Made by a program: the position numbers and the translations under genes
From: Blastocystis sp. Blastoise
Taxonomy: Eukaryota; Protista; Bigyra: Opalinata
DNA length: 64,000 nucleotides
Direction: 5' to 3'
NCBI GenBank assembly: GCA_039096225.1
Contig: JBBPEB010000005.1
Coordinates: forward strand, 930,001-994,000
Part shown: positions 12,323 to 48,778 of the stretch, in pieces
How the letters are laid out: every line of letters begins with the position of its first letter
Numbering within the stretch: the stretch's first letter is position 1
Notes under the pieces: generated by a model
Seen by the model: only the letters and a program-made list of their open reading frames with translations
Database searches by the model: none
What the model was told of the DNA's origin: nothing

Positions 12323-12492
12323 TTTAATAATTATTGTTTATGTATTTTTTAAATAAAAAATAAAATAATAATGATATTTTATAATTATAAAATTATTTGA
12401 AATTCATAACAAAACAAATGATTGGAATATAGAATAGAATAGAATTAATTAAACAAGTTAACGTTAAGAATAGTAAGTAAGAAATATTAAAT

Positions 12493-16212: not shown

Positions 16213-16249
16213 GCCGCAGGTCCGGGGCCTAACGGCACCGGACCGCGGC
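16213..16249 (-). terminator. Helitron 3' subterminal GC-rich hairpin (rolling-circle termination signal)
   Basis: Minus strand GCCGCGGTCCGGTGCC-GTTA-GGCCCCGGACCTGCGGC, then GTGACC-CTAG; identical in copy B. Confidence 0.85.
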
Positions 16250-16410
16250 TGCAATGAATAATAAGTGTTTTGTTTTTATTCACTTTCTTTCCTTATTATC
16301 TACTATATATTATATAATATATATTATTTATTAAATATTATCTATAATATGTTACTTATTATCTATAATATGTTACTTATTATATATTATATATATTATT
16401 TTATTAACAC

Positions 16411-16480
16411 TTCTTATACTCTATATGGAGAGTTACAATCATATATTGATTGTAATCAGGTTCAATTCCTGATATAAGAA
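16411..16480 (+). ncRNA. tRNA-like cloverleaf 1 in Helitron A
   Basis: Stems TTCTTATA/TATAAGAA, CTCT-ATATGG-AGAG, TACAATC/GATTGTA and TCAGG-TTCAATT-CCTGA (B-box-like). Confidence 0.6.
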
Positions 16481-17879
16481 TTAAAATTTACTTTTGAATA
16501 GTATCTGAAAAACTAAAAACAATACTATAAAAAAAATAAGAAATCGTTTTTGAATCATTATATTTGTTATTTATTATTTTAAAAATATATTTTGTATTTA
16601 TAAATAGTTGAGTTACTGCTTTAATTATTATGGAGTTTCTAAAGCTAATAAATTTAGAAATGGGTCACAATGTTAAGTATTGAAAGTCATTATTATGTAA
16701 AATCATTTTAAATAGATTATAATAAGGTAGTTTACACTTTCTTTAACCATTTCATAAAACTAAAACGAATCTAACACAACAAAGTCAACATTCATTTTCA
16801 CTTTAACGACTTAAACACATAGTTTTAGAATTAATATTAATAAAGTCACTCTAAAAAGCATTTCTATACATAAAAGTGTCAACAATATCGCTTGTAAAGA
16901 GACTTCACCATTTTGATATCCAGTGTATCAAAATAGTTTTAGACATAACTTTCACATAGTATAGATCTCATTATTTCATATATTACTTATAGTTGAATGT
17001 CTTGAATCTCTGACCTAAAGACCCTTTTTTATACATTTTGAAAAGTTAACACACTTATAGTTAATTTAAAAAGCTTATATTTTAACACTATGCTCAACAT
17101 AACTCTATCAATACATTAGCTACCATTTTGACACTCTTTATAAACATTTTTCATTTGGTCATACACTTTGTCAAGAGTATTTTTGTCCCTCCTTTTAATA
17201 TAATTCAGACTATAAATAATAGTTTGATAAATAAAATGTTTTATATTGAATCTCGTCCTTTGGATAATTCATTTCTACATTTTAAAAAAATAATCCCTTT
17301 AAACTTGTTTTTAAAAGTCAAAATTTTCATAGTATAACAAAAACACAATTTTAAAAGAATAGACTTACTCTTTAAAATTTCTGAACAACTCAAACGCATT
17401 CTTAATTCACTTGTCAAAAATGAAATTCTCTTATTTTTTAATATGTTGTAGAGTACATGTTGTTCTATATTAAACAATTTCTATAATTTTAAATCTCTTA
17501 ATTTAATAACCTATTTTTTCACATTTCTTATTGCTTAAAATTTTACACATAATTAAATATATAAATGAAAGTGGAGAATACAAAACTTAATAATAACTCA
17601 ATCATTGATGTAATTATATCGCTAGTCTATATCAGATTAGGTGATAAATGAATGTTATTATAAATTAAAACAATATTAAGGACCACATACTAATAACATT
17701 AACTAATTTCAAAATTATCTTAATAGTAAGCACAATAAAAATTATAAAAAACGAACAAAACAAAAATAAATAAATAATACTAAGAAAACAGATAATAGAA
17801 AGATATTATCTGTGAAAAAAAAAAATAATAATAATAAACAAAGCAAAACAAAACAAAACAAAAATAAAATAATATGTTA

Positions 17880-19079
17880 AGTATGCCAACCAAATTAGAA
17901 GAACCTATAGAAATAAAAGATAAATATATATATATATACCTTCAGCATTAAAGAACTATTTACACCATCACTATATAGATAAAATATATAGATATATATA
18001 TTAAAAGAAATATAAATATTTGTTATATATATATATATATATATATACCTTTAGATATATTTTTATTATTAAAATAAAAGCCAACATTAGGGTGATAAGA
18101 TCCCCTATTAGAAAAGACACCTATATATAATAAATAATAAAAAATATATAAACAATAAAAATATATATACCTTCTAAAGAAGGAACAGAAAAATAAGTAT
18201 CATATCATAACTGACTTGAAGAACCTATATATAATGATAAGATAATTAATAAATTAAAAAAAAAAAGAAAGGAAGAAATAAGTATATACCTTTCATTACC
18301 TATAATAGAAGACTCGATCAGAATAGAAGGACCTATATATAAATAATAAATAAAAATAAACTAAAATAAATTAAAAAAATAGACATACCTTAATTATTAA
18401 CACCTTCAGCAACCACACACACAACAATAAAAGAACCTATAAAGAAACAGTAATAGACAAATAATAAATAAAAAAATAATAATAATAAATGAATGACAAT
18501 ATATATATATACCTTTAATACCATAGGAACAGTCTATCTGATCACCAACAACATCAACAGCAGTATTGAAAGCATCAGAAGAACCTAAATATATATAAAA
18601 GTAAAAAAAGAAAAATAAATGAATGACAACATACCTTCAACACCACACAGACATCTATCATCAACACCACTGTCAACATGCACAGCAACTGAAGAACCTA
18701 TATATATATATAGAAATAATAAAAAAATAATAATAAAATATAAAAATAAATTAAATGATTGGCAACATACCTTCAATACAATAAGAAGAACCTACAATCA
18801 CATCATTAGAACCATTAGCATCATTTAAAACAACAGAAGAACCTATAAATAAATAAAATTAAAAAAATAAAAACAAATCATTGACAACATACCTTCACAG
18901 TTAGCATAGCAGGCAACACCACAGCCTCCGTATGATACAAATAACATAGAAGAACCTAAAATAATATAATAAATAATTTAAAAAAAAAAGAAATGGAAAA
19001 TATATACCTTTAAGACCATCAGAGCAAGTAATACCAAGACCAAGAACATACACAACTGGATCCTATTGAGTAGAAGAAC
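17880..19079 (-). pseudogene. Multi-exon cargo gene (fragment) in Helitron A with repeated symmetric exons encoding GSS...(E/K)G units
   Basis: GT-AG introns at 18956-19007, 18843-18892, 18698-18770 and 18585-18634 separate exons of 72/63/72/63/72 nt. One in-frame TAG; further short exons downstream; 3' limit approximate. Confidence 0.6.
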
Positions 19080-19509
19080 CTGAAAGTTTTTGAGAAATGT
19101 ATATTTTTCCATCTACACACTTCGATCTTGACAGCATCATGCCTTCTGAGGCATCTTAGATAATATTTTAATTATAAAAAATAAGTGTTTTCTCTTAATA
19201 TAAAAATTGTGTTTATATTTCCACTTTTAAAGAATAGGGTCTATTTTAAAAATATGCTTCTTAAAAATTAATAGAAATTAAAAAACCCTTGAATTTTCAT
19301 TGATTTATTTACAAAAGTAATAATTGGGTCATTTTCTATTAAAAATATTTAGGGTACCCAAAAAACATAGTTTTTTACATTTTTTAAATATTTTATTATA
19401 TTGATTGACTGAGTATGTTTTATTTATTTATTTGATATTGTTTAGTTATTATTATTATATTTATTTGTATATATTGATTTATTCATTTAAAATATTTCAT
19501 TTTCTATAG

Positions 19510-19944
19510 GATTGTTTTGTATTTGTCTTCGTTATAGTGGTGAAGTGTTCTTGAAGTGGTCTTGGCTGTGTAAAATGGTTTATTTATGATCAGGTATATA
19601 AATATATTATTTATTTCTTAAGATCTGTTTTTCTTTTTGTTAATTCGTTTTTATTATTTATTATTTTTATTATCAATATTATTTATTTAGTCTTTACATA
19701 TAATTTATTCTATATATTATTAATAATTTTTATTCTATAGGAAAGAAACTTCAATGGATGTGTTGTGGTCTTCGTTGCTAAATATTTTCCTTCTTTAATC
19801 TGTCGTTCAAGGTTATTTTAAAGGTATATATTTATATTTTATTTATTATTTTTATTATTTATTGTTTACATTTTTTTTTATTATTTATTTATTTATTTAT
19901 TATTTATTTATTCATTTTTTTTATATGTTTATTTATTTATTAAT

Positions 19945-19975
<31 letters not shown>

Positions 19976-20050
19976 TTATTGTTTATTATTTATTTATTTA
20001 TTTATTTATTTATTATGTTTATTTATTATATATAGGTTTAATATTCTTCT
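19510..20050 (+). other. Divergent spliced unit in Helitron A (exons 19510-19593, 19741-19823, next acceptor at 20035), no clear ORF
   Basis: TATAG|G acceptors and AG|GTATAT donors are kept in both Helitron copies while the intron bodies diverge. Confidence 0.45.
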
Positions 20051-20491
20051 TAGTTTTTTTTTTCTTCTTTCTATCTTCGTTCTTCTTCCTTCTTACTTCT
20101 TCCTTCTTCCTCATCCTTCCTACTTACTTCATTCTTCCTTCCTTCTTCTTCCTTCTTCCTTCTTCATTCTTCCTTCTTCTTTCTGCCTTCTTTCTTTTCA
20201 TTCTTTACTTCTTCCTCCTTCTTCCTTCTTCTTCCTTCTTCCTTCATTCTTCGTACTTACTTCTTACTTCTCCCTTCTTCTTCACCTTGGTTCTTCATTC
20301 TTCTTCCTCCTTCCTTCTTCCTTCTTTCTTCTTTCTTCTTCCCCATCCTTGATTCTTCCTACTTCCTTCTTCCTCATCCTTCTTTCTTCCTTCTTCTTCA
20401 TCCTTCCTTCTTACTTCTTCATCCTTCCTTCTTAAACTTCCTCCTTCCTTCTTCCTTCTTCCTTCCTACTTCCTACTTCCTACTTCCTCCT

Positions 20492-20565
<74 letters not shown>
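20045..20565 (+). repeat. Polypyrimidine (CTT/CCTT-rich) tract followed by a (TA)n microsatellite
   Basis: Directly visible; the counterpart at 42233-42863 is longer. Confidence 0.9.
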
Positions 20566-20587
20566 ATTATTATTATTTATAAACTCC

Positions 20588-20654
20588 CTTTATGCTCTAG
20601 AAGGAGAGAAACAATCATTATAGATTGTTTTCAGGTTCAATTCCTGACATGAAG
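20588..20654 (+). ncRNA. tRNA-like cloverleaf 2 in Helitron A
   Basis: Stems CTTTATG/CATGAAG, CTCT-AGAAGG-AGAG, AAACAATC/GATTGTTT and TCAGG-TTCAATT-CCTGA; T-run downstream. Confidence 0.65.
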
Positions 20655-22932
20655 TCTTATTTTTCTTTTTCTTTAATATTTTTTACATATTATATATATA
20701 TATATATTTTCTCTTTTTTTAAACTTATTTTTATCTCTTTTAGATTATACCTTTTAAATTTTGACATTATATACATATATCTAACTGTTTATAGTTTTTT
20801 TAGACTTCCTCTTCTCAACAACAGTCACAATGAGAACAAATCCATTTTAACTCAAACAACTAAGTCATCTCAAAACTGTTTGAATCAATTAATATAGACG
20901 TCTATGACATAATTTATCAATTTAAACTGATTTTCAACTCTCAAAAGTAAGCAAACCAAACACACATGTTGACTTTAAAACGTTAAACTCAGTATTAAAA
21001 GATAGTTTTTATAGAGTGGACATAAAACATTGATTTAAACAAAAAGGAATGGAAACAATTCACTCTTGATACAACTTTACCATTTGACAAAACACTCATC
21101 CACAATATTTTCCAAAGTTCTTTTAGTAAAGTGTTTATATAGACATATTATGTATAAAATGAAAGTCAACTTCTTGAATCTCTTTGTTTAAGACAGTGTT
21201 TAAAACATTTTGACAAATTGACAACCTTTAACTTGCTATTTAAAGTTAATATTTAAAGAATAGACTTGATTCAGACATATAAACACAACTGTCATCACCA
21301 TAACACTTTTAAAGACACTTTACCATTTGCTCATACACTTTGATCAAAATATTTTCGTCCCTTCTTTTGACATAATATAGGTCATACACTCTAGTTTAAT
21401 GAATAAACACTCTTATTTTGAATCTCGTCCTCTAAGTCACTCATTTTTACATTTATTTAAATTTAAGACCCTTAGAGTTGACGTTTTAAATCAATTTTTC
21501 TACAGTGCACGAAATTCACGATTTTGATCAAACTGAAGTAAAAATAAATTTTAAATAATAGTCACAACCCTTCACACATCCACTCTTTAAAAATTATTTT
21601 AACTGTACTTTTGATATGTTGTAGGGCTACTATAGCTGTACACTAATTAATATCTCTAGATTTTTTATTCATAGTCTAAGACTATGTTTTACACATTCTT
21701 TTGAATTTGACAACCTTAAACTATTTATTTAAAGCTCTTATTCATAGAATAAACTTGACTTAACATTCTATACACATATGCAAACCCTTTTTCTTTTTAA
21801 GACACATTTTGTCATTTGGTCATACACTTTGACCTTCATAATTTTGACTCTTCTTTTAACATAGTATAGAGTATTATCTCTAGTTTATTAAATAAAAGTC
21901 ATTATATTGAATCTCTCACTCTAAGACCACTTAATTCACATTTTTCAAAATTGTCATACTTAAACTCATTATTTTAAGACTCTGTTTCTACTATAGTAGT
22001 TTGATGACCTATTGATTACTATGATACAATATTAGTCGATTATAAGAAGATCGAAGAAAATATCGATCACTCAAAAATCGTCTTCAGGAGCTCAAAATCG
22101 CTACACCTAGGTTTTCTGACCTCCTGAATCAGAATATGATGTCAAATTAAGAATCTAAATTTGACCGTTAAGGCCTCACGTGTTCAATATGAAAAAGTAT
22201 TAAAAAATAGATAAATATAAAGAATAAACACGGATAACGTATATTGTGGGATTGAGAAAAAATCAAGTTTACCCCATGTTTATTTTCCAATTATCTGGTC
22301 AACAATTTTTATCGGGGTCATCCCAAAGAGCCAATCAAAAACGACTCAAAAATCATGTTTTCTGCTCTTTTATTAATAACTTTTTAGTTATAAATAATAT
22401 CGCTTAACTAAATATACGGTGCACAACTACACGTTATATCGTATTGAACTGTGTTTCACTCAAAAGTTAACTCCCCGTAAGTTTAGAGGAGTTGCGGCGA
22501 CAAACTATAGTATATAGTAGCCAATCAAATGCATTCTCCAAAAACTGACCAATGGGAATTTTTTTGCCTATTCTCATATATATAGTAATGATATCAGTGT
22601 ATGGTCAATCCACTGATTACTTATATCCTATTTCATTAAGATGTTTTACTAATGAATATGAGAATAATATTCATGTTATTGATACTACAAATCTACCTTA
22701 TTACTATTCGAATGGTATTAAATATGAAGGTATATCAAATAAGATCAATAAGAATGTCTATTATTGTAATCGTAAATTATTAAAGTTATTACCTCATGAT
22801 AATATGTTCTTTATTACTTGTGATTATCCTTGTGTTGTTTTATTAACTATCTCTTATATATAAATATTTTAATTCATTTCATTTAAATTAAAAAATGTTT
22901 TGTTATATTATTCATTTAAAAATTATTAAAAA

Positions 22933-23355
22933 ATGGAGCCTAAATCTGTATCTGAATCCTTACATTCTTTATCAAGTACAAGTTCAACAAGTTCAGATAG
23001 TTCAACAACAACCACATTATCCGAAGAAGAAATAGAAAAGAAAAATACTTTATTAGAATTTATTATAAAAGCTATAAAATGTTTATTTGAGAAATCAACT
23101 GAATTCTTTCAATTAATTGTTAAAAATATAGATATTCATTGTAATTGTTGTAATCCACAAACAAAGAAAGTCTATTATAAGACAATGAAAATACAACAAA
23201 CTATTATTGAAGAAGAAGTCAAACATATATCAGAAGTCTTGAATGAATTAGAAGAAATTGATTCTAATCAAAATGAATCAATACAAGAATTAGCTGTTCA
23301 ATTAATGAAATTAAATATAAGTGTTGATTCTATTGTTCAATCTCTTCATTTATAA
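22933..23355 (+). CDS. Hypothetical viral protein, 140 aa (Ser/Thr-rich N-terminus, CxCC, coiled coil)
   Basis: Protein is identical in copy 2, with silent nucleotide changes. Confidence 0.8.
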   Translation: MEPKSVSESLHSLSSTSSTSSDSSTTTTLSEEEIEKKNTLLEFIIKAIKCLFEKSTEFFQLIVKNIDIHCNCCNPQTKKVYYKTMKIQQTIIEEEVKHISEVLNELEEIDSNQNESIQELAVQLMKLNISVDSIVQSLHL

Positions 23356-23422
23356 TTCTATGAAATGTTATAAAATATTAATAATAAATTTGTTTTGTTT
23401 ATAAATAATTTAATTTTTAATA

Positions 23423-25219
23423 ATGCAATCAACAGGTTATTCAGATAAAGATTGTGAAGAATTCTTTACAAATTGTATAGATCAATTATTACATTGGAAG
23501 AAAATACAATTATCAACAAGTATAAATTGGAAGAAATGGATAAAGACAATATGTAAGAAATTTCGTAATGAAGAACGAATTCAAATAGATGATATGGAAG
23601 AACCATTCTTTTGTGTAGAAGTCTTAACAGATCCATTTCAATTTCAAAATGTTATGCAACATACACAAACAGAAGCTCCTGGACAACAAGGTGGATTATC
23701 CAATACTACTGTAGCTAATTATATGCAAATGATTACTTATATAATGAAGAATATATCTATTTGTACAGATGATGAAGATATCATTAATTATAAAGCATTT
23801 ACTCCACAAAATATAAAGAAATGGGAACATTTATGGGGTTCTTTACAAATAGATGCTACTTATTCAAGACATTATGAAATTACTCAGAAAATTATTAATT
23901 GTGAAGCTGATTGGGGAGAAATCATTAATATCACCAAAAAGAATTATTTAGAAAATCCTAATGATTTATATTATGTGAATAGTTATTTATTAGTTTTAAC
24001 TTATGATACATTATGTGCTCGTAATGATTATAATGATTGTGTAATCTATACTCGTGGTCAACAAATTCCTTTATCGTTAAGAAGAACAACCAATTATATT
24101 GATTTAAATACTTTGACTATTCATGTGAATGATACAAAGAATCGATTTGAAATTGGTAAGAATGAATATCCTACTTATCAGTATTTATCAGAAGAATATC
24201 TAAATGTCTTAGCTAGATCCTTACGTTTATTTCCAAGACATTATTTATTTGTTACTGAGAATGGTGGGAAAGTACGTGATTTGAAATTTGGTGATGAATA
24301 TATAAAACCTCATTTAGGATGGATTTATAAAACACAACAGAATAATTCTTTAATTAATGGTTGTGATATTATAAGACATTTATTTGCTCAATATTATTAT
24401 AGATTATCAAGAGAAGCACAATTCCAACATAATGATTCAGAACATGAATCTAAAGGTGTAGAACTCTTTGAAAACTCTATTATGAAGATGTTACATAGTC
24501 AATCAACACATATGGAAAATTATATATCTCCTTATTTATCTTCTCATTCAACTAAATTACAAGATTTAGATAATAAAACAAGAACATTTCATATTGATAT
24601 GAATAATATTACTTATACAAGAGAAATTAATCAATTAAATAAATTATTATTTTTATGTAAACGATTTAATGATCGTATAGAACAATATGATGAAGATTAT
24701 GAAGATGTATTTGGTAAAGAGAATTTCAATATGAAATCAGAATCGATATTATCTACATTAGAACAATATTCATCAGATAATGATACTATAATGATTACAG
24801 TAAGATATTATAAAGATCTATTAAAGCATAAGTATCCTGATAAAAACGATTTAGAAAATGAATTACCTGTAGGATGTTCATTAGAATCTGAAGAAGTTCC
24901 AGAGAATTCTAGAGATCGTTATAATCGTTTTATACGTAATAAACAATTATTACCTGATCATTTACATAATAATACAACAGATTCAGAATTAACGAATACT
25001 CAAGCATCTCTTATGCAACAGAATACCCAAGATGAAAACTCTACACCTATAGTTATGAATAATTCAGATACTTATGCATTACGTAGTCTTTCTACTATGC
25101 CTCCTTTAGAACCTATTCATCGTGGTCATGGTTTATTGAAAAAACATAAAAGTAATGCATTCTTTAAAGTCAAAGTCCCTAAAAAACATTTTCATGGAAT
25201 TCAATTTAAATTTTATTAA
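23423..25219 (+). CDS. Tyrosine recombinase, long form (598 aa)
   Basis: Catalytic pattern CARNDY (R), VNDTKN (K), DIIRH (R), HSQSTHMENY (H, Y at +9); aligns motif by motif with the 315-aa recombinase. Confidence 0.75.
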   Translation: MQSTGYSDKDCEEFFTNCIDQLLHWKKIQLSTSINWKKWIKTICKKFRNEERIQIDDMEEPFFCVEVLTDPFQFQNVMQHTQTEAPGQQGGLSNTTVANYMQMITYIMKNISICTDDEDIINYKAFTPQNIKKWEHLWGSLQIDATYSRHYEITQKIINCEADWGEIINITKKNYLENPNDLYYVNSYLLVLTYDTLCARNDYNDCVIYTRGQQIPLSLRRTTNYIDLNTLTIHVNDTKNRFEIGKNEYPTYQYLSEEYLNVLARSLRLFPRHYLFVTENGGKVRDLKFGDEYIKPHLGWIYKTQQNNSLINGCDIIRHLFAQYYYRLSREAQFQHNDSEHESKGVELFENSIMKMLHSQSTHMENYISPYLSSHSTKLQDLDNKTRTFHIDMNNITYTREINQLNKLLFLCKRFNDRIEQYDEDYEDVFGKENFNMKSESILSTLEQYSSDNDTIMITVRYYKDLLKHKYPDKNDLENELPVGCSLESEEVPENSRDRYNRFIRNKQLLPDHLHNNTTDSELTNTQASLMQQNTQDENSTPIVMNNSDTYALRSLSTMPPLEPIHRGHGLLKKHKSNAFFKVKVPKKHFHGIQFKFY

Positions 25220-25263
25220 TTTTAAAACAAAACAACTTTTTATAATAAAAAATAAATATATAT

Positions 25264-28200
25264 TTAATTTGGTATAGCATATAAAGTATTATCTATTAAA
25301 ATTCGTTTTGTTGATGACGTATTATGATATTGATCTTCACTATAAACAATTTCTTCTTTCTTAGATAAACAATTGGATAAACAGAATAAATCTGTATCCA
25401 CACATTCATTATAAGTATTATCAATCATTAAACCACAAATACCAATAGCATTCCCCCCCTTATAGAAATTTGAAGTATGTTTTCTATGAATATTCACAAT
25501 ATCTATAGAATTAAATGTATCTTTACTACTTAAACAACCAAATAAAGCATTTGTAAATTTATCTAAATCTTTCTTAATCGTAAATTGATTATTATTATTC
25601 ACTTTCTTATAACTATTAAAAATATCTTCAATAGTAACTACATTCAAATAATAAGGATCTATAGTAATATGGTTATCAACAAAAGATTTCAAATCATATC
25701 CTTCTGTACTACGATCAAAGAATCGTTTCTTACATTCACTTATATGATATTCATTATCTAATTCATGCATATCTAATTGCATACTAGAATAGAAATAATT
25801 ACTTACTAGATAACTAAAGATAATAGAACGATTCTGATAGAATTTATCGGATAGAGTATAATCCATTTCATAATGATTAGGTTTCAATCTCTTTTCTACT
25901 GTCTGTTTACGTTTAGGTAAATTATGATCTACATAATCTTCATATAAATTAGCATTACCAGGAGGGAAATAACGACAACATGATGGTAAGAAACAAACTC
26001 TTCTTTCAATAGGACCAGCATTCACAGCAGTAGGTTGGATATTACTTGTCATAAATAAAGTACCCGTGAAATGAACTTTTGTAAATATATTACTGAATAA
26101 TTTACGAGCACTAGCACCTTCTTTCTTTTCTGCTATTTCTTTAAAGACTTTAGAAGAGAATGGATTGAATGTTTTCTTTCTACCAGTAACATCTTCTTCT
26201 ATTAATTCATTCATATAATACATTGTTTTATTAGACATATCTACAATCTTAGGAGCTATAGATGTTTCTTCTAAATTATCTGGATTTACTATAATACATT
26301 GATTACTACCTACAATACGAGAAATTAAATCAGTTGTTATTGTTTTACCATTACTACCTGTACTACCATATAATATATAAGAAACTGTTTTCTGAGTATT
26401 GACATAGAAAGCAGTGGTTAAGATACGTAACATAATACTTTCATATTTTTTATCGAATTCACAATATCTTGCAATATGTTGTTCAAATAATTGGATAATA
26501 TCTTTCTGTTCATTATTTATATTCCAACTTACATTAAATTCAGTATCAATTAATAAATCTTCAAACACCATATCTTCTTTATGATATGGTTGGATATAAT
26601 ATTGTCTAGGATCTTCTTCTGTAGATTCTTTTGGATATAAATAACCAAGTTGTGTATAGATAACACGTTCTTTATGAACCATATACGTATCTAAATATTC
26701 TTTATAAGATTTACCATAAGTCTTCAAATAACGATTCAACCATTCTTTATAATGATATTCATTAGTAACAGAAGCAGACATTATTTTATCAACTATTTTT
26801 TGATGTTGTTCATTCTCTTTGGAATATAATCTTGATAATTTGAATTTCTCTACAATCGATTTCATAAATGTAGTTATTTTGGTTTCAAAGAAATTAATAT
26901 CATAATTATTCTTACAACGTCTTAAGATATTATATTCATCAAATGTATATAAGATAAAATTATCTTTATCTAATATAATAGATACAATTTCATTAAATTC
27001 TAATAATTGAAATAACATAACTAATGTTTGTGAATCTACAAGATTAAAGGATTGAATACATTCTAAAATAGACATAAATATGAAATCATTATCATCATCT
27101 TTATTAAATAATTTATTATCCATTAATATCTTCAAAATATAATTATTCGATAAATGAGTAGGATCAACTTGTATATGATTCCATGTAGATTCAATTACAT
27201 CATCACTTCGATCATGACCATAACGCAATGAATAATTTTTAAATAATTCTAATCCTCTTGTTGTATTACAAATCTGTTTTGCTGCACAACATAATTTATA
27301 CCAAGTATTATGGGATTCAAAATAATTCATATCTTCAATAGAACCAATCAATAATAAATATCGTTCTAATAAAGCTTCTTTAGATGCTGTAGTATCCAAT
27401 ATAGTATCTGTATAAATCAACATAGGAATATCTTTAATATCTTGTATAGAACATAATATAGTACGTGAACAATTATTTAATCTTGTATAATAACGTTTAT
27501 AACGTGAATATTGTTTTAATTTATAAAAAATAATAGGATTAATAATATCACTTATAATATCATCTTCATTCTTATAATTCAATAATGTTTTGAAATAATA
27601 ATGTTCATCGATTTCATCATCTATTTTCTTCCATGTTTTATTGGTATATTCTTCATATAATTTATAAGTAGATGGAGAATTATCTTTACTACAACCAAGA
27701 AACATACAACCATTATTCTTTCTGGGTTTACCAATAACATTATAATCAATGAATTCTTTTATATCTAAATTATTCATTTTACATAAATCAACCAATTTGG
27801 TATTCAGAATCATACTATTATATAAGAAAAATAAATAATCACCATTTACAAACCAATTTGTATATATATGAATTCCCCATGAATAATGTATTTCATTATG
27901 AACTGTCTTCTTATTCACTTCTTTCTTTGTATACACAAGCGAAATAAATTCTTGATTATAATAATGAATACAATGATTACACATTTCTTCTATAAATTCA
28001 TGAATAAAAGAATCTGTTAGAAAAGAAAAATCATTTGATATTTGGTGATAATCTAAATCAAACCATAATCTTCTATAATTAGTTGATGTATTACAAGGAG
28101 TACAATCAATATAATGTAATAATTCTTTTGGATTTTGGTAATTAGTAAATAGACTTTTATAAAATGGGAATGGATTTGGTATAATAATTTCACTATGATT

Positions 28201-28266
28201 ATCTTTTGAATTATCATGATTAAAGGAACCAAAAGTATAAACAAAATGAATTTGTGAATTTTCCAT
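25264..28266 (-). CDS. AEP primase(-polymerase) fused to PriCT-2 and SF3 (D5-like) helicase
   Basis: AEP motifs WFDLDY, GIHIY and FID; PriCT-2-like TWYKLCCAAK..GLELF; Walker A GSTGSNGKT, Walker B YMNE, motif C FMTSN, Arg finger ERR. First ATG at 28266. Confidence 0.9.
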   Translation of the reverse strand: MENSQIHFVYTFGSFNHDNSKDNHSEIIIPNPFPFYKSLFTNYQNPKELLHYIDCTPCNTSTNYRRLWFDLDYHQISNDFSFLTDSFIHEFIEEMCNHCIHYYNQEFISLVYTKKEVNKKTVHNEIHYSWGIHIYTNWFVNGDYLFFLYNSMILNTKLVDLCKMNNLDIKEFIDYNVIGKPRKNNGCMFLGCSKDNSPSTYKLYEEYTNKTWKKIDDEIDEHYYFKTLLNYKNEDDIISDIINPIIFYKLKQYSRYKRYYTRLNNCSRTILCSIQDIKDIPMLIYTDTILDTTASKEALLERYLLLIGSIEDMNYFESHNTWYKLCCAAKQICNTTRGLELFKNYSLRYGHDRSDDVIESTWNHIQVDPTHLSNNYILKILMDNKLFNKDDDNDFIFMSILECIQSFNLVDSQTLVMLFQLLEFNEIVSIILDKDNFILYTFDEYNILRRCKNNYDINFFETKITTFMKSIVEKFKLSRLYSKENEQHQKIVDKIMSASVTNEYHYKEWLNRYLKTYGKSYKEYLDTYMVHKERVIYTQLGYLYPKESTEEDPRQYYIQPYHKEDMVFEDLLIDTEFNVSWNINNEQKDIIQLFEQHIARYCEFDKKYESIMLRILTTAFYVNTQKTVSYILYGSTGSNGKTITTDLISRIVGSNQCIIVNPDNLEETSIAPKIVDMSNKTMYYMNELIEEDVTGRKKTFNPFSSKVFKEIAEKKEGASARKLFSNIFTKVHFTGTLFMTSNIQPTAVNAGPIERRVCFLPSCCRYFPPGNANLYEDYVDHNLPKRKQTVEKRLKPNHYEMDYTLSDKFYQNRSIIFSYLVSNYFYSSMQLDMHELDNEYHISECKKRFFDRSTEGYDLKSFVDNHITIDPYYLNVVTIEDIFNSYKKVNNNNQFTIKKDLDKFTNALFGCLSSKDTFNSIDIVNIHRKHTSNFYKGGNAIGICGLMIDNTYNECVDTDLFCLSNCLSKKEEIVYSEDQYHNTSSTKRILIDNTLYAIPN

Positions 28267-28334
28267 GATTATTTGACTTATAAATAATGAAAATAAATAT
28301 GGTATAAAATTCAAAACAAATAATATATTAAAGA

Positions 28335-28472
28335 TTCTAGAAGTCAGTTTTGGAAGCTTCTAGAACATTCAAGAACATTCTAGAACATTCTAGAACATTC
28401 TATAATAGTAAATATTACTTTATATTTTTAAATGTTCTAGAACCTTCTAGAACCTTCTAGAACCTTCTAGAA
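28335..28472. promoter_or_regulatory. Two HSE-like arrays upstream of the primase-helicase gene
   Basis: TTCnnGAAnn repeats with 10-bp period at 28358-28400 and 28435-28472, plus a single unit at 28335. Confidence 0.75.
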
Positions 28473-28582
28473 CATCCTTTTTATACTTTAGTGTTTTAAA
28501 TGTATATACAATAAACAAAACAATTTTCAATGATTTTTTACAAGTTTATAAGTAAAAATAGAAAAATAAACAAGAAAAATAA

Positions 28583-29206
28583 TTAAATTTCAATTGGTTC
28601 TTGACTATTAATATATGTACATGAATGAGGCCATCCATTTTTATCATATAAAATACCATCCCAGAAATACATTTGTTTTGAAGGATCTCTTTTAATCTTG
28701 TTAATACTCTTAGCATGAACAACTTCATAAGTATAAACTTTACCTTTTTCATCATAAAGAAATCCATCTTCCATATGGAATTTCATAATATCAAAATCAT
28801 CATCTTTAGAATTCGAATGTTCTTTAGAATCTTCAGAACATAAAATAGTAGTTCTATCACTTTCTAAAAGATCTTCAGTATTGATAATATCTTGAATATC
28901 TTGTTCTTCATTAAGTTGTTGAGTATAAATATCAGCAGCGAATTCTTCATAATCTTCAAGACCTTTAATAACCGCGTTTATACGTTTTAAAGCTGATCTA
29001 TAGTTTTCGACTTCGAAAGAAGCAAGACGTTCTTTAGATTTTGCAATACCCAATAGATTCTTTTCTCTATTCAATTGAGACTGATGTAAATCAATATCAC
29101 GAAGAACATTCTTATGAACTTCAACAGCCTTCTTAGAATTCTTAAGAAGTTCCATACGAACAGTTTGAAGACATTTACGGGAATCAGCAGAAAGATTAAA
29201 TTGCAT
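28583..29206 (-). CDS. Hypothetical viral protein with N-terminal coiled coil (207 aa from the first ATG)
   Basis: Conserved in copy 2; short HSE at 29318-29335 upstream. Confidence 0.75.
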   Translation of the reverse strand: MQFNLSADSRKCLQTVRMELLKNSKKAVEVHKNVLRDIDLHQSQLNREKNLLGIAKSKERLASFEVENYRSALKRINAVIKGLEDYEEFAADIYTQQLNEEQDIQDIINTEDLLESDRTTILCSEDSKEHSNSKDDDFDIMKFHMEDGFLYDEKGKVYTYEVVHAKSINKIKRDPSKQMYFWDGILYDKNGWPHSCTYINSQEPIEI

Positions 29207-29604
29207 TATAATCGCGAATATCGTTACAGAGAGAAAATTTATATTTATCAAAATGAAATAAATAATACATTTAAATGGAATATTAAATATTCTAGGAGAC
29301 AGTGTAGAATCTCTATGGAATGTTCTAGAAGGTTCATTTGATTGGCTAATTTTGTCGACTTAGCATTTTTTATTTGTGTTTCAATGACGAGTATAGTTGG
29401 CATCTGTAATCTGATTGGATAAAAAAATTAGTAAAACACAATTAGACGATGACGACGATGTGTCATACGAAATAAGTTATTTTATTGGCTTATTTTCCAG
29501 CTGGAAGCAATAGGCTTTTGTTAGCAACTGAAATGAAGAACTGTACACTAAAAATAGTATATTTAATATATTGTATAAAAATACTTTTGAAGGTTTAAAT
29601 AATC

Positions 29605-30132
29605 ATGGAAATTCCTGATAGTCTTTCTGCCAGTTTATCCCCTTTCGGTCAAGCCATGATATCCCCCTTGTTGAATCCATTTGAAAATAGTGTTTCTGCA
29701 AATCCTATGGCTTTACCCAATGATAATGATTTCTGTTTTAATTCGCGTGACGAAATCATGTTTGAAGATCCACCTCAAGAAATTCATCCAATCAATGATG
29801 TTTACGTATCTAAAAATCCAGATAGATATCATTCGGTTAACAATCAACCAATACAATTTCAAGATCAAGTAAATACAAATCCTGATAAGCAAGCATTATT
29901 ATTTACAAATGAGGAGTTAACAAATATATCCAGTCAATTCGAATCTTTATTTCAAACTATTGAAACAGCTGATAATATATTAAATGGTATTTATTGTACT
30001 GTTGATCATTTAAAAACAAAGATTGAAAGTCAGAAACAAGATTTGAAACAGATTCATGATGATTCTAAAGAAATTGTTTCATTATTATCCGAATATTCTA
30101 TTCCTTCTATGTCTGAAATATTTGATCATTAA
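29605..30132 (+). CDS. Hypothetical viral protein, 175 aa, acidic N-terminus and C-terminal coiled coil
   Basis: Conserved in copy 2; upstream divergent promoter region 29340-29520 contains three ATTGG (CCAAT) boxes. Confidence 0.75.
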   Translation: MEIPDSLSASLSPFGQAMISPLLNPFENSVSANPMALPNDNDFCFNSRDEIMFEDPPQEIHPINDVYVSKNPDRYHSVNNQPIQFQDQVNTNPDKQALLFTNEELTNISSQFESLFQTIETADNILNGIYCTVDHLKTKIESQKQDLKQIHDDSKEIVSLLSEYSIPSMSEIFDH

Positions 30133-30223
30133 TTATTTTTATTTAATTAATTATTTTGTTTTGTTTATTTTTTTTTTAAATTAATTACACAAAGTTTAAA
30201 TGGAGAATAGAATAGTTTCAAAT

Positions 30224-30331
30224 AGAATTCTTGAATGGTCTAATGGATCTATTAAAGAAATATGTAACCACAGTATCATGGTTCGATTCCGTTAAAATGT
30301 TTCCATTAGATTATTCAAGTGTTCTTTTTTT
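30224..30331 (+). ncRNA. Viral RNA polymerase III small RNA, VA-RNA-like architecture (~105 nt)
   Basis: A-box TGGTCTAATGG (30236-30246), B-box GGTTCGATTCC (30280-30290), T7 terminator (30325-30331), 18-bp terminal stem 30230-30247/30302-30319. Confidence 0.78.
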
Positions 30332-30377
30332 CTAGAACCTTCTCGAACCTTCTAGAACCTTCTAGAACCTTCTCGAA
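30330..30377. promoter_or_regulatory. HSE-like array upstream of the SSB-like gene
   Basis: Five TTCnnGAA units at 10-bp period. Confidence 0.75.
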
Positions 30378-30454
30378 AATTGATTCATTTGAAAAGAATA
30401 TCGTAAAATATTAGTATTAAAATACTTATATTTTTACTAAATACTTAACTAAAA

Positions 30455-31048
30455 ATGTCTACAACTGAATTTAAAAAACCTACTATTCTTGATACTTCTA
30501 ACTTTAATTTACAATGGGATGACACCAAAGAAAATGCTGTTCTTTTAAATAATAATCATCGTGTATGTATTTCTACTGATGCTACACCATGTTTATTTGG
30601 TTATATTGTTACACGTGATAAATGGACTTTATTAACAATTGAAGATGATAATCAAGTATTCTTAACTGCTTATAAAGAACTTTATCGTAAATTATGTGAA
30701 TTATGTCCTGATGGTGATATTGTTAATTTTGTACGTATGGATAATGGTAAATATAAGATTACAATTAAAGTACCTATTAATGCATCGAAGAATATTACTA
30801 TTGATATCACTGATAAAAGAGATAAGAAGATTAATATCGGTAAAGATCCTAAGTTAACTTACGAAGAAATACGTGAAAAGTATATTCCACCAAATACGTT
30901 ATGTAAAGTATTATTTACAATACATGGTATTCATCGTTATAATAACAAGTATTATATTGGTTTATATGCTCGTTCTATTAAAGTCATCGATAAATCTACG
31001 AAGAATACTAATAGTAATGATACTATTATTGATTTAACCAATTTATAA
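30455..31048 (+). CDS. Probable single-stranded DNA-binding protein (OB-fold, T7 gp2.5/NCLDV-like)
   Basis: Pattern ST..TPCLFG...helix...KITIKVP...IPPNTLCKVLFTIHGIHRYNNKYYIGLYARSIKV resembles NCLDV SSBs. Recognised by eye only. Confidence 0.55.
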   Translation: MSTTEFKKPTILDTSNFNLQWDDTKENAVLLNNNHRVCISTDATPCLFGYIVTRDKWTLLTIEDDNQVFLTAYKELYRKLCELCPDGDIVNFVRMDNGKYKITIKVPINASKNITIDITDKRDKKINIGKDPKLTYEEIREKYIPPNTLCKVLFTIHGIHRYNNKYYIGLYARSIKVIDKSTKNTNSNDTIIDLTNL

Positions 31049-31123
31049 ATTTTTAATGTTAAATTTATTTTTTATTAATATATTTGTTTTGTTTATAAAT
31101 AATTTTATAATTGAAATAAAAAA

Positions 31124-32752
31124 ATGCAAAGTTGTATATTAGGAATGCCAAGTCCTGGTACTTTTGGTATGAATTTAATTTCAACTGGAAAAGAATATAG
31201 GCGATATAATACACAACCATTACATAAAATGGATCAATATAATCCAATATTTCATGAAATAGGTCCAAATTCATCTATGCCTGTGTCTACTTTAGAAAGT
31301 AAAGAAATACATGATGGTAAAGAAGATGATTATGTAGATCGTTCTAAAACATTTGGTAAAGATGCTGTTCCACAAGGAAATGGTGCTTTAATTCGTGCTA
31401 GAGCAGCAGGTAAAGGTGTAATGAAAGCAGCTGGTCCAGAAGAAGATAAAATAGATGGTGAAGATCGTCAATATAAAGTATTAAATCCATGTAAACCAAG
31501 ACGTAAATCTGGTAGAGGTATTATTCCAAATAAATCAGAAATCAATAAATTAGAGAATAATCAAGGTTCTGGTATTGGTGATGCAATTAAAAATAAAGTA
31601 AAAGATATGTATCAACGAAATGTATTAGATATAAGAGATGCTATTGTAGATAAAAAAGCTAATAGAAAAGCTCGTGATGCATTAGCTATTTTAGCTCAAT
31701 ATGTTGGTGACGGTCATCATGATCTTGATGATGAATTCAAAAGATTCTATGAACATAAAATTAAACGTGGTGGAAAGATTCCTATATCTGTTGCTTCAGC
31801 AATTATGAATGCAATTAAAAATAAGAAAATGATTAATAATCCAAAATTAAGAAGAATGTTAAGACCCTCTATTATACCAAAATATATAGATTTAGATTCA
31901 GCTCAAAGTGGTGATGGTATATTAAGAGTTAAAAGAGGTGGTGGATTCTGGAGTGGAGTTATGAACTATGCACCAGCTCTTTTAGGTGTAGTTGATAAGG
32001 GTATGGATTCTTTTGCTAAAGGTAGAAAAGCTTATTATGATACACATTTGGCACAACAATCAAGTGAATTAAATGATATGGAATTTGAAATGGAAAAATT
32101 AAAACGTCAACAAGCATTAAATGAAATGAAAAAACAAATAGGTTCAGGAAATACAATAAATAAAATGTTTGAAGGATATTATGATGTAGCTGATGAAATG
32201 CAAGATGCTCTTGATGAAGATGATAGACTACATCCACAACCCGTTGTTCAACCTCCACCACCTCCACAACAACAAGTTGATCGACCTCCTCAATCTCAAC
32301 CTCCTCAACCTTATAAACCCATGTCTCGTGATGAACAAAGTTATTATTATAAGATTTATGGTTTCCCTCAAAATGATAAAGAGAAAGTCGATAGAAAATG
32401 GAAAGAAGATGAAAGGGATAAACGAATAGCTGCAAGAAGAGCTAAACGTAGAGGTTATGGTGGTCGAGTTAAATTAAGTAAAGCAGAATTCTTAGAACGA
32501 ATGAGAAGAGGAAAAGAAGCTAAAAAGAAAAGAGGTGGTGATTTGAATCCATTAGTATCATTTTATACAGATTTTATAATACCTGCAGGAGTGGCACGAA
32601 AAAAACGTAAAATACAAGAGGCTGATTTAAAACAATTACAAATTATAAAACAGAAAATAGATAATAATGAAACATTAAATACAGGTGACGAATTGTTCTG
32701 GAAAAAAAAGAAGTATATGTTATCAAAAAACTCAGGGGAGGGGATCTGGTAA
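31124..32752 (+). CDS. Basic virion core polyprotein precursor, 542 aa
   Basis: K/R-rich, with four GG motifs (KRGG x3, GYGG) and about seven GxG motifs; amphipathic segment after KRGG; directly upstream of the protease. Confidence 0.65.
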   Translation: MQSCILGMPSPGTFGMNLISTGKEYRRYNTQPLHKMDQYNPIFHEIGPNSSMPVSTLESKEIHDGKEDDYVDRSKTFGKDAVPQGNGALIRARAAGKGVMKAAGPEEDKIDGEDRQYKVLNPCKPRRKSGRGIIPNKSEINKLENNQGSGIGDAIKNKVKDMYQRNVLDIRDAIVDKKANRKARDALAILAQYVGDGHHDLDDEFKRFYEHKIKRGGKIPISVASAIMNAIKNKKMINNPKLRRMLRPSIIPKYIDLDSAQSGDGILRVKRGGGFWSGVMNYAPALLGVVDKGMDSFAKGRKAYYDTHLAQQSSELNDMEFEMEKLKRQQALNEMKKQIGSGNTINKMFEGYYDVADEMQDALDEDDRLHPQPVVQPPPPPQQQVDRPPQSQPPQPYKPMSRDEQSYYYKIYGFPQNDKEKVDRKWKEDERDKRIAARRAKRRGYGGRVKLSKAEFLERMRRGKEAKKKRGGDLNPLVSFYTDFIIPAGVARKKRKIQEADLKQLQIIKQKIDNNETLNTGDELFWKKKKYMLSKNSGEGIW

Positions 32753-32844
32753 AGAGTAAAGATGAAAAACTTATTCAAAATTCAATGAATTGCGATAATC
32801 CTATTATATCTGATAAAACTCGTCATGTTACTCCTAGATCCCCT
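32725..32844 (+). other. Putative -1 programmed ribosomal frameshift signal (A_AAA_AAC plus downstream stem-loop)
   Basis: Heptamer 32725-32731 is in the correct phase; stem AGGGGATCTGG (32739-32749)/CTAGATCCCCT (32834-32844); the -1 frame is open into the protease. Confidence 0.75.
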
Positions 32845-33318
32845 GATAATTTCAAACAAACTCTATCTCAATATTGTAATATACCAAATTCTTTAATATC
32901 TCAATTATATAATTATGCTTATTTAAATAAACCTACCTCTTCTGTTGCTTGTGATCGTGCTGAAAATGTTATGAAACAATTAAATAAAACGAATTCTCAA
33001 TCTTATAATTATTATAATAGTTATGATGATTTTGAACAAAATATAGATCAAGATCAAACTAAATTTAATATGATCTTTCATGAAAGTCCTAGTGATCCTT
33101 ATAATGGTCATTTTGAAGCTGTTATTTATAATGGTAATAAAAACATAGAACACTATTCATCATTAGGAAATGAACCTACTTTTTCAAAATCATTTATTCA
33201 AAATCATAATATTCAATATAATCCTATTCAACACCAAAAAACTACAAGTAATGCAAATGGTTGCTTTTATTATTCTTTACTTTATTTACTTTCTAATGGA
33301 AATCTTATGCCTTGTTAA
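32785..33318 (+). CDS. Adenain-like (clan CE) maturation cysteine protease; probably translated from 32731 via frameshift
   Basis: GHFEAV (His), YSSLG (aligns with FEPFG/FDSFG), YNPIQHQ (oxyanion Gln), GCFYYSLLYL (Cys). Confidence 0.8.
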   Translation: MNCDNPIISDKTRHVTPRSPDNFKQTLSQYCNIPNSLISQLYNYAYLNKPTSSVACDRAENVMKQLNKTNSQSYNYYNSYDDFEQNIDQDQTKFNMIFHESPSDPYNGHFEAVIYNGNKNIEHYSSLGNEPTFSKSFIQNHNIQYNPIQHQKTTSNANGCFYYSLLYLLSNGNLMPC

Positions 33319-33322
33319 AACC

Positions 33323-33567
33323 TTCTAGAATATTCTAGAATCTTTAATTTATTATATTAATATTTTGTATAATTAATTTGTTTTGTTTAATATTTAATAC
33401 TATTATGACAAAGAAACGATTTGGCAATTACTACTTAGATCGTAGTGCAGAAACTTTAGAGAATGTAAATGAAATACTGTCAGTTATTGAAATTGTTCTT
33501 ATTATTATATATATTTTACTTTACTTTTATATGTCCAAGAAACGTTCTAGAACATTCTAGAACATTC
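33323..33567. promoter_or_regulatory. Two short HSE-like arrays (33323-33340 and 33545-33567), each upstream of a small gene
   Basis: TTCtaGAAtaTTCtaGAA and TTCtaGAAcaTTCtaGAAcaTTC. Confidence 0.6.
33405..33560 (+). CDS. Small putative membrane protein, 51 aa
   Basis: ATG at 33405; hydrophobic stretch ILSVIEIVLIIIYILLYFYM followed by KKR; retained in copy 2; has its own 3' motif. Confidence 0.55.
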   Translation: MTKKRFGNYYLDRSAETLENVNEILSVIEIVLIIIYILLYFYMSKKRSRTF

Positions 33568-33662
33568 ATTTTGAACTGGCTCTATTTGTAGAATCTTTAA
33601 TTTATTATATTAGTGTTTTATATAATTAATTTGTTTTGTTTAATCATTGGTTAATTTTAATA

Positions 33663-34037
33663 ATGAACAAGAAATATCTTAGTTATTCTTATTTTTGTCG
33701 TGTGATGAAGAATCTAAAAGAAGAAGGAATTAAATCCAAAAAGAATGAAATAGCGAATCTATTAGAACAATTTTTAAATAATAATAACAACAAAAATCTT
33801 AGTGATTTGCAATTGAGTTATTGTAGAAATATGTTACTTTATATAGATGATCCTGTGATTCATCAACGTCTTGAAATGTTATTGGATAAACAATATATGA
33901 AGAATGAGAATCAATATCAAGATGATAAGAATCTTATTCAACCCAATAATATGTTTATGCCAACTATGAAAAGTAATCAACAACAAAATCAATATCAAAA
34001 TAATAATAATAATCTATCTTTCTTACCTTTTAATTAA
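33663..34037 (+). CDS. Hypothetical viral protein, 124 aa from the first ATG, Q/N-rich C-terminus
   Basis: Protein is identical in copy 2 despite several silent changes. Confidence 0.75.
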   Translation: MNKKYLSYSYFCRVMKNLKEEGIKSKKNEIANLLEQFLNNNNNKNLSDLQLSYCRNMLLYIDDPVIHQRLEMLLDKQYMKNENQYQDDKNLIQPNNMFMPTMKSNQQQNQYQNNNNNLSFLPFN

Positions 34038-34110
34038 TTTTTATATCCTTTTATTACTAGTTGTTTAGTTATATTCAAAATTAAAGCAAAACAAACATGA
34101 AAACATAAAA

Positions 34111-35046
34111 TTATTCAATTAATTTTTTAAATAAATTATTATTTTCTAAAGATACATAAGAATTAATATGTGTATAATCATTATGACATAAAGCAGAAGC
34201 AGAATTTTCTATATCTTGGAATGTATTGGTTGTAGTTGTAGCATATAATTTTCTTAATGCATTAATGGTTAATTTTGGATGGATTTGTTTTAAATGCTTA
34301 TTCACAAACCAATCAAATGCTTTAGTAGTAAATCCAGTTCTTACAGAAGATTCAAATATAAATTTACGATTTGGATTTCTTTTTAAGAGTAATTCTAGAT
34401 CTTCAATCAATTCTTTTGGTGCATCTAATTGAATTGTAGAGTATTTACCAGCAGTTTTATAATCATTTAATAGAATAGAACCAGTATGTTTCTCTTTATC
34501 ATAAACAATATAATTCTTATGAATAGCTGGATCAATAGTATCTTCTGGTGATAGAATGAATAATTGAGCATAATCAGCACGAGCAGGAGGAAGATAGGAG
34601 TAAAAATCTAATATTAATCGTAATGGATTATAATTTTCTAATTTATCGTGATATTCATGTAAATATGGAGTCGTAATACCATCTTTAATAAGATCTTGAA
34701 TTAAAGTACGTTTCTTATTATCCAGATATTTTTCATACATTGAATTGATAATCACATAAAATTCACACCATTTATTTAAAATACCTTCTTTATTTAATGA
34801 AGAAACATTACGTATAATAAATAAAATCAATTCACATAACGATTTCATTGGACTAATTTTGATTTTACGTTCATTTACCATATAATCCATGAATGAATAA
34901 GGATTCTTTAAGAATTCTGAGAACTTTTTAAATGGTAATGGGAAAATATATAAATTGAAATAATTGGTTAAACGTTTTTTCCAAATATCAGAATAATTTG
35001 AATTCTGTATAACCAAAAGATACTTGTCATAATTTGTATTTTTCAT
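34111..35046 (-). CDS. Tyrosine recombinase/integrase, short form (311 aa from the first ATG)
   Basis: PPARADY (R), LNDYKTAGKY (K), NALR (R), HNDYTHINSY (H, Y); virophage/PLV-type integrase pattern; adjacent to the TIR. Confidence 0.88.
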   Translation of the reverse strand: MKNTNYDKYLLVIQNSNYSDIWKKRLTNYFNLYIFPLPFKKFSEFLKNPYSFMDYMVNERKIKISPMKSLCELILFIIRNVSSLNKEGILNKWCEFYVIINSMYEKYLDNKKRTLIQDLIKDGITTPYLHEYHDKLENYNPLRLILDFYSYLPPARADYAQLFILSPEDTIDPAIHKNYIVYDKEKHTGSILLNDYKTAGKYSTIQLDAPKELIEDLELLLKRNPNRKFIFESSVRTGFTTKAFDWFVNKHLKQIHPKLTINALRKLYATTTTNTFQDIENSASALCHNDYTHINSYVSLENNNLFKKLIE

Positions 35047-35134
35047 TGATTTTCTCAAGTAGAATCTCTAAAACTTCTATTTTCAAAAGAATAATACATA
35101 AGAAAATCAAAATAAAATATCTAAGATTCTCATG

Positions 35135-35182
35135 TTCTCGAATGTTCTAGAAGTTTCGAGAATGTTCTAGAATATTCTAGAA
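35135..35182. promoter_or_regulatory. HSE-like array upstream of the short recombinase gene
   Basis: Five TTCnnGAA units at 10-bp period. Confidence 0.75.
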
Positions 35183-36041
35183 AATTGATATACATGCCGC
35201 CACCTAAAACCACTGGAACACAATTAGTTTTCCCAGTTTCCCCAATATAATTATGTTTTTGTGTTCCAAAATCCCTCATTTTTACATTTTTAAGCAATCT
35301 GATTGGACAATTCACGATGACGCATCCTATTTCCATAACGGTCACCCTTGTTTCCAAAAGTCTCTCGTTATAATCGTGGTGGTGGGTACATCTTTTTACA
35401 AGACCACACCACCACCAGCTTTTCTTTCACCCACTATAAATACATACCTTGATCACTTTACTCTTTTTATATAATTTTTTTTATGATTATCATGACTTTT
35501 TATATTATTTATTGATCACTATACATACATTTTTATTTTTATATATTCCCGTGATTATTTCTATTATTTCTTTTTAGATAGAACCATCCATTTCATCTTT
35601 TCTCTATATAAAGGGAGGGTCGGGGTGTGTGTTTATTTAGCACATTCTGTGCTTCTTTTCGTATTTCTTTCTGTATTCCCGTGATTATTTTACTCACTTT
35701 ACCAACGATGGAGCCATTTCCCATGAATATTCCCTGTAAAGGGGAGGGTGTGAGTGTGTATTTTATTTCTTTTATGATTACTATGAGTTTCTCCTTGATC
35801 ACTTTACGTTTCACGTTGGAATCGGAACACAAATAAATTAAAAATAAATAAACATGGGAAAAAATAAATACACACACACACTACCCTACACTCCCATGGT
35901 TATTTTACTTCAGAAATGTTAATAATTCTTCCGTCGAGAACAAAAAGGGGGGATGTCTTCCCCGCTTATGGCTGCGCGCGTCGCGCAGACTCTATGCGGG
36001 GTTTGCATACCCCCCTTCTGCAGTTCGAAGAACGGAAGAAT
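35145..36041 (-). repeat. Right terminal inverted repeat of PLV copy 1 (897 bp)
   Basis: Reverse complement of 4492-5387. Confidence 0.96.
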
Positions 36042-40022: not shown

Positions 40023-40053
<31 letters not shown>

Positions 40054-48746: not shown

Positions 48747-48778
48747 TGAATTTTGAATTAATTTCTCATCTTTACTCT

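Follow-up and report, generated by a model that had tools for sequence, protein, structure and literature searches.

The stretch of DNA analysed here (the window, 64,000 nt) carries on its plus strand two consecutive genes whose arrangement is the subject of this study. The first is an ORF at 31124..32752 (+) encoding a basic, Gly-rich protein of 542 aa, which we infer to be a core polyprotein from its composition and from its four GG sites, i.e., IKRGG, VKRGG, GYGG and KKRGG, three of which follow K/R-R. Searches of Pfam, PHROG and PDB sequences returned no family match for this core ORF, and its nearest named proteins, 82–98% identical and spread over many contigs, are listed at NCBI as 'hypothetical proteins' from Blastocystis sp. 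Blastoise. The second gene has an ATG-to-stop part of 177 aa at 32785..33318 (+) and encodes a predicted clan-CE (adenain-like) cysteine protease. A second core–protease pair is found in an inverted copy at 48213..50425 (−).

Both pairs sit in an integrated polinton-like element, of which the window holds two inverted copies. Copy 1 (4493..36040, including a 6.4-kb insertion) is ~31.5 kb long and ends in ~0.9-kb inverted repeats (897 bp, 99.4% identical, at 4492–5387 and 35145–36041), so that it has the terminal inverted repeats and the size (15–40 kb) of polinton-like elements; copy 2, from 45630 on, extends beyond the window. The G+C content of the window is mostly 15–33%. Among the element's genes, a 345-aa ORF matches a packaging ATPase PHROG (1e-10), a 1000-aa ORF matches a primase-helicase (2.5e-9), and a 407-aa ORF scores 0.97 in the Atlas to viral clusters, one of which has a DJR-like domain in 10% of its members. 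By eye, the adjacent 407- and 490-aa ORFs (11099–13965, minus strand) are alike and possibly represent a duplicated major capsid gene. Tyrosine-recombinase-like motifs were likewise seen by eye in ORFs at 23423–25219 and 34111–35046, and a tyrosine recombinase has a weak Pfam match in the 311-aa ORF only (E 0.08). Neither PolB nor an rve integrase was recognised among the element ORFs scanned, which places the element outside the Polintons/Mavericks in the strict sense. We infer that the element is a polinton-like virus endogenous to a protist of Blastocystis type, the host being read in this way because the nearest named proteins come from Blastocystis.

Other repeats were observed in the same region. 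The insertion is one copy of a ~6.4-kb element found at 16203–22591 and 38494–44900 (minus strand), the ends of which are Helitron-like, with a 5′ TC after A and a GC-rich hairpin followed by CTAG before T. One copy splits an 811-aa gene, intact in copy 2 at 58687–61122, into pieces of 740 and 103 aa, and the other sits between the two viral copies. Tandem 10-mers of the TTCTAGAACA type occur in intergenic DNA at 5346–5389, 28358–28475, 30330–30377, 33321–33341 and 35132–35182, and are possibly a promoter or binding motif. Sequencing-run contigs cover parts of the region outside 32441–32754, and one of them has a 72-nt joint at 32933–33006 with TA..TA ends.

The tentative assignment of the downstream protein to clan CE is based on weak fold matches and on Atlas features. 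Pfam (including PF00770), PHROG and PDB sequence searches of the protease were all empty. Its Atlas features scored 0.94–0.96 to Peptidase_C5 clusters, in which the family share is 13–62%. Two structure models were obtained (pLDDT 56 and 65). With the first, Foldseek ranked the poxvirus core protease, NopD and SENP at the top of its PDB matches, the best of them weak (E 4e-3), and a MELD-virus protease at the top of its BFVD matches, again weakly (E 1.1e-3); clan CE proteases predominate among the top matches of this model, all at E above 0.001. The second model gave the same top BFVD match at a weaker E of 0.03, the rest being mostly unrelated. His109, Gln151 and Cys160 are kept in all seven relatives checked. 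A Ser at 33157–33159, likewise kept in 7/7 relatives checked, stands at what we take to be the Asp/Glu position of the clan-CE triad. GG sites are also carried by two other basic ORFs (496 and 345 aa; 5678–9170, minus strand), which may be additional protease substrates.

The core and protease frames overlap at a slippery heptamer, A_AAA_AAC, at 32725–32731 (+). Re-reading of the frames bore out the original prediction that this heptamer lies in phase with the core ORF, six codons 5′ of its stop: its codons are AAA at 32726 and AAC at 32729, and six sense codons of the 542-aa ORF follow before TAA at 32750–52. The last five core-frame codons before Trp are rare, with a relative use of 0.03–0.11 and, for one, 0.24. 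The −1 frame is open from 32689 (after a TGA at 32686) to 33318, and past the heptamer it comprises 195 codons that run into the predicted protease. Directly after the heptamer it reads LRGGDL, an echo of KRGGDL at core residues 469–474, and both the stop-free frame and this echo are confirmed from the sequence. Adenain cleaves at the consensus (M/L/I)xGG, and the −1-frame linker (32731..32784, +) begins with a predicted cleavage site, LRGG, followed by 14 residues that are conserved in relatives. The locus combines an X_XXY_YYZ heptamer phased with the zero frame, a 7-nt spacer (32732–32738, +; 5–9 nt being expected) to a stable 3′ structure, which is predicted, and an open −1 frame with conserved coding sequence from the shift site onward. 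This anatomy matches the eukaryotic −1 consensus set out in the consulted part of PMC3542737. Another in-phase heptamer, A_AAA_AAG at 32704–10, was considered as a shift site and rejected, since it lies 28 nt from the stem and has a last-position G outside the consensus, and is also broken in the core copies reading WKEKK.

The stretch between the core stop and the protease ATG looks like coding sequence of the protease frame, in which codon fit is best (+4.9 bits, vs. −1.9 and −16.3 in the other two frames). Copies 1 and 2 differ in this stretch at 32766, 32770 and 32772, each time silently in the protease frame, and at 32713 and 32698 upstream, silently in the core frame, which upholds an earlier claim about the three downstream and the nearest upstream differences. 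However, the silent differences between stop and ATG weigh little, because only two codons are involved. In copy 2 (heptamer at 48800–48806), the heptamer, spacer and stem arms are identical to those of copy 1.

Downstream of the spacer, RNA folding predicts a long-range stimulatory structure at 32739..32844 (+) made of three helices. The minimum free energy (MFE) fold contains an 11-bp stem (32739–49/32834–44, including one G–U), a 6-bp helix (32754–59/32828–33) and an innermost 5-bp helix (32761–65/32820–24). Thus the 7-nt spacer, the 11-bp stem and the 6-bp helix stood as originally proposed, whereas the proposed ATGA/TCAT pairing gave way to another register, that of 32761–65/32820–24. The MFE fold has an energy of −29.4 kcal/mol (z −2.36; 3 of 200 shuffles were as good), and pair probabilities are 0.92–1.0 for ten of the eleven stem pairs and 0.55–0.84 for the first pair across four fold windows in both copies. 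The stem closes about 85 nt and is long-range rather than a local hairpin, local folds of 30–60 nt reaching just −1 to −3 kcal/mol. A loop of ~85 nt is atypical for a −1 stimulator and counts against the frameshift reading.

How far could chance explain such a signal? In-phase canonical heptamers are common in the element, with 24 in the 6,800 codons of 18 element ORFs, so that the heptamer alone means little. Past the core heptamer, the −1 frame is open for 195 codons, the next best of the 24 having 13; the downstream fold energy is the lowest (−29.4 kcal/mol, next −25.4), and the longest helix beginning at 5–10 nt is 11 bp, followed by 8 bp at the next best. Of the 24 in-phase heptamers, the core one alone combines a −1 frame that stays open over a long distance with the best structure. 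The structure was also compared with 1000 sequences per codon model in which the protease-frame peptide was fixed and synonymous codons were redrawn. Recodings folding as stably numbered 1/1000 with element codon usage and 52/1000 with uniform codons, and those with a helix of at least 11 bp numbered 16/1000 and 4/1000, respectively; in sliding 129-nt windows of the element ORFs, 5 of 461 folded as stably. The predicted stem structure is thus real-looking, but by itself it is not overwhelming.

Conservation of the core protein bears on the same segment. Across the 21 near-identical core-protein copies compared, the last 14 residues, which span the heptamer, the spacer and the 5′ stem arm, are the same in 21/21, and the preceding 66 columns vary at 24 (permutation p 0.004). 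The copies fall into two haplotypes, which differ at 21 of the 66 positions and at none of the last 14, and a recombination boundary between the haplotypes could be the source of the invariant tail. These data also speak to the idea that the frame break arose when an in-frame fusion gene decayed in dead integrated copies, with heptamer and stem coincidental. A relative does have the in-frame form (see below), copy 1 carries an insertion elsewhere, and heptamers are common. However, all 21 core proteins end alike across two diverged haplotypes, differences between copies 1 and 2 are mostly silent in both the core and the protease genes, and distant relatives on many contigs are likewise called as separate protease ORFs, and we regard decay as highly improbable. 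Stutter of RNA polymerase on an A run, either A8 at 32702–09 or A6 at 32725–30, would add a base and yield the same fusion, and both runs do lie within the overlap with the open −1 frame. However, A8 cannot exist in the copies reading WKEKK, A6 is short, and stutter leaves the stem 7 nt downstream unaccounted for, which makes this explanation very unlikely.

Relatives of the pair were sought by a word-indexed search, which gave two clusters at 60%, by a longer-length search, which gave two more, and by a full HMMER search, in which 4 of 1.84 billion representatives matched. Scans of viral_contigs, metagenome_contigs and genome_contigs yielded no confirmed locus DNA for them. The most informative relatives are two metagenomic proteins, P0051 (391 aa, ENA) and P0048 (248 aa, Logan), which differ at 3 residues over the 248 that they share and which form lineage C. 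Each has core and protease in one ORF, so that the product postulated for the window, core and protease fused with a GG site in front of the latter, exists as a continuous reading frame. Their proteases are 51–52% identical to that of the window, and their upstream parts match the core protein (E 4e-11 and 3e-7), the N-terminal parts being missing or odd. By tblastn, residues 16–108 and 134–185 of P0051 align on the core frame, and residues 205–391 align on the protease frame from 32755, i.e., 30 nt 5′ of the ATG. At the junction, lineage C has GG and a 13-residue linker with 6/13 identities to the linker of the window, and identities over these 13 positions are 5–8 in all seven proteins compared. 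Taken together, the fusions and the linker in the relatives argue that the fusion is a natural form of the protein and that the DNA before the ATG is coding. The in-frame relative shows that the fusion is natural, not how the window's lineage makes it.

The other relatives are known as gene calls or gene models. Calls in lineage A (P0001 and P0002; many contigs) begin at the Met or 13 residues before it, with 5–6/13 identities to the window's pre-ATG residues. In lineage B (NCBI models P0043–P0047), the linker is found in two of the four protease-bearing models with 7–8/13 identities; at the position of the window's protease Met, P0044 and P0045 carry Leu, and P0044 has GG ahead of the linker. 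This Leu, with the linker kept, shows the protease Met to be dispensable in these protein models. Lineage D (P0049, P0052 and P0053) is joined in NCBI models without the linker region. We note that the NCBI Blastocystis proteins include at least two additional, diverged families of the element (P0043–P0047; P0049, P0052 and P0053), which are annotated as hypothetical genes of the host, with two or three viral ORFs fused in each.

The gene calls bear directly on whether the protease is instead made independently, by reinitiation at CTG 32746 (within a CUG-n-UAA overlap) or at ATG 32785, or from a short transcript of its own. The window shares its Met with P0001, P0002 and P0051, and the 190-aa calls of P0001 and P0002 begin exactly at the window's CTG position, which could be a real start; according to the consulted part of PMC3542737, non-AUG codons can serve for reinitiation close to a stop. 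However, P0044 and P0045 have Leu for Met, and the protease-frame GG before the linker, found in the window, P0044 and P0051, would stay untranslated. The TGGGA (TURBS) motif is absent from 32550–32790 and 58 ATGs lie upstream; the 60 nt before the protease ATG hold 20 G+C, vs. 0–13 for the other 17 ORFs, which sets them apart from the leaders of those ORFs. Independent expression also explains neither the heptamer–stem spacing nor the in-frame fusion, and we consider it unlikely, a 177-aa product from the ATG being possible given the kept Met. The start call of P0001 and P0002 at the Leu position may correspond to TTG; their 3′ stem arm has a change from Arg to Lys, and the two together would amount to a compensatory change from C–G to U–A.

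A small alternative intron would also join the two proteins if, in some mRNAs, its removal took out the core stop or changed the frame. In the window, 47 GT–AG pairs could join both frames, and the NCBI models P0043, P0044, P0045, P0047 and P0049 join core and protease, apparently by introns. A 23-nt candidate with donor GTATAT (32713) lacks the GT in copy 2. Judged by the general splice consensus rather than by the introns of the window's host, the other short ones suffer from either a weak donor (GTTCTG, GTTATC) or an AAG/GAG acceptor within a purine-rich context. In lineage B, the junctions vary between near-identical copies, with three different ones in the models of one family, and extend into the next gene, so that these joins look like artefacts of ab initio intron prediction. 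Short introns are numerous in Blastocystis according to the consulted part of PMC10690189, which however also warns of erroneous introns and merged genes. Splicing is thus a distinctly unlikely source of the fusion.

Programmed frameshifting would take place on a single mRNA, and the distribution of a putative 3′ signal is of interest here. In copy 1, 16 of the 19 element ORFs have a TGTTTTGTT/TGTTTGTT motif in the 120 nt that follow them (in one of the 16 via the inserted element), and because this motif is present in convergent spacers and absent from divergent ones, it appears to act as a 3′ signal. It is missing after three ORFs, two of which face a convergent neighbour. The third, the core gene, is thus alone among the 19 in lacking the motif although a gene on the same strand follows. 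The original prediction had the gene pair lacking the motif; this holds for the core gene, with no motif between core and protease, whereas the pair shares one after the protease, TGTTTTGTT at 33379..33387 (+). The motif resembles what we take to be the Blastocystis downstream element, TGTTTGTT, and the strain of the named relatives is presumably of the tortoise group. In the consulted part of PMC10690189, the downstream element has a proposed role in 3′ cleavage and is unenriched in tortoise strains. Despite this, TGTTTTGTT follows most of the viral genes, e.g., at 31085, 33379 and 33632, and the viral motif may be a one-base variant, or the virus may be adapted to another Blastocystis lineage.

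With all sequence features of a −1 signal present, the linker kept and the protease ATG not conserved, the frameshift-fusion reading is supported, and we put at roughly three in four the probability that programmed −1 ribosomal frameshifting makes the core–protease fusion. The proposed course of events is as follows. One mRNA would cover the core and protease ORFs, and a minority of ribosomes, stalled by the predicted stem, would slip back one base at A_AAA_AAC through tandem slippage. Most ribosomes would stop at 32750 and release the 542-aa protein, and some would shift after Asn536 and add 195 residues, giving a minor product of 731 aa (536 + 195). The shift would set a low protease-to-core ratio, and the fusion would be carried into the particle through its core moiety. 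Cleavage after LRGG would then free a protease of ~191 aa, and this protease would act on the GG sites of the core polyprotein as well. With less assurance, we also favour the broader reading that a dsDNA virus lineage of Blastocystis type independently evolved the Gag-Pro strategy, in which a −1 shift doses, packages and self-releases the protease, and that in-frame and frameshift forms coexist in one family.

If true, a dsDNA virus would have arrived convergently at the means by which retroviruses ration their maturation protease and package it, and the origin or loss of a recoding signal would have been caught in a eukaryotic DNA virus. It would also explain why gene callers miss or mis-splice such proteases. 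A further prediction is that polinton-like protease genes elsewhere, where they lack a good start, may conceal comparable signals. The signal is a short cassette and is directly testable.

Frameshifting of this kind is most familiar from RNA viruses. The closest known parallel is Gag-Pro of the beta- and deltaretroviruses MMTV and HTLV, in which A_AAA_AAC is the gag-pro shift site and in which a structural polyprotein is likewise followed by a −1-frame protease after a heptamer, a short spacer and a structure. In retroviruses, the Gag-Pro shift provides a fixed ratio and targeting to the particle, according to the consulted part of PMC3542737. In contrast, the window holds a dsDNA polinton-like element with a predicted cysteine rather than aspartic protease, a long-range stem and no second shift, and 'retroviral-like' is an analogy only, not homology. 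The predicted protease itself is comparable to the clan CE proteases of adenovirus, poxvirus (I7), ASFV (pS273R), virophages and MELD viruses in its weak fold matches and its His...Gln...Cys order, and also in the GG-type sites of a neighbouring basic protein. Such adenain/clan CE maturation proteases are, as far as is known, encoded by stand-alone genes. The consulted part of a 2021 review (PMC8310308) remarks that nothing hints at recoding in adenovirus and describes the eukaryotic DNA viruses that use frameshifting as 'relatively few'.

In the literature searched, mostly non-subscription papers, we found no earlier report of a core–protease frameshift or of the present element, and no paper on a Blastocystis ribosomal frameshift. 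Similar fusions have been predicted, so that the idea is not wholly without precedent: the consulted part of PMC11071296 reports predicted −1 frameshifts in adintoviruses and related viruses that give penton proteins alternative C-termini or a hexon–adenain fusion ('Hexain'), with at least 12 'Hexain' entries in its supplement. There, too, a −1 shift is predicted for eukaryotic dsDNA viruses of middle size, and one form links adenain to a virion protein; the partner, however, is a capsid protein rather than a core polyprotein, and the viruses are animal-associated. In that part of the paper, the basis for 'Hexain' is a KnotInFrame prediction given in one sentence, and an in-frame natural counterpart is undescribed. 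A midsize dsDNA virus with divergent virion proteins, the Blastocystis MELD virus (BK012044), has been reported from Blastocystis datasets (PMC8502044, as consulted in part). Its description, with PolB and an integrase gene like those of adintoviruses, sets it apart from the element in the window, which is without a recognised PolB or rve-type gene and has a primase-helicase and a weak tyrosine-recombinase match. The core–protease pair of the window thus most likely shows an established mechanism at work in a setting where it is new, and the in-frame relative serves as a natural control of an unusual kind.
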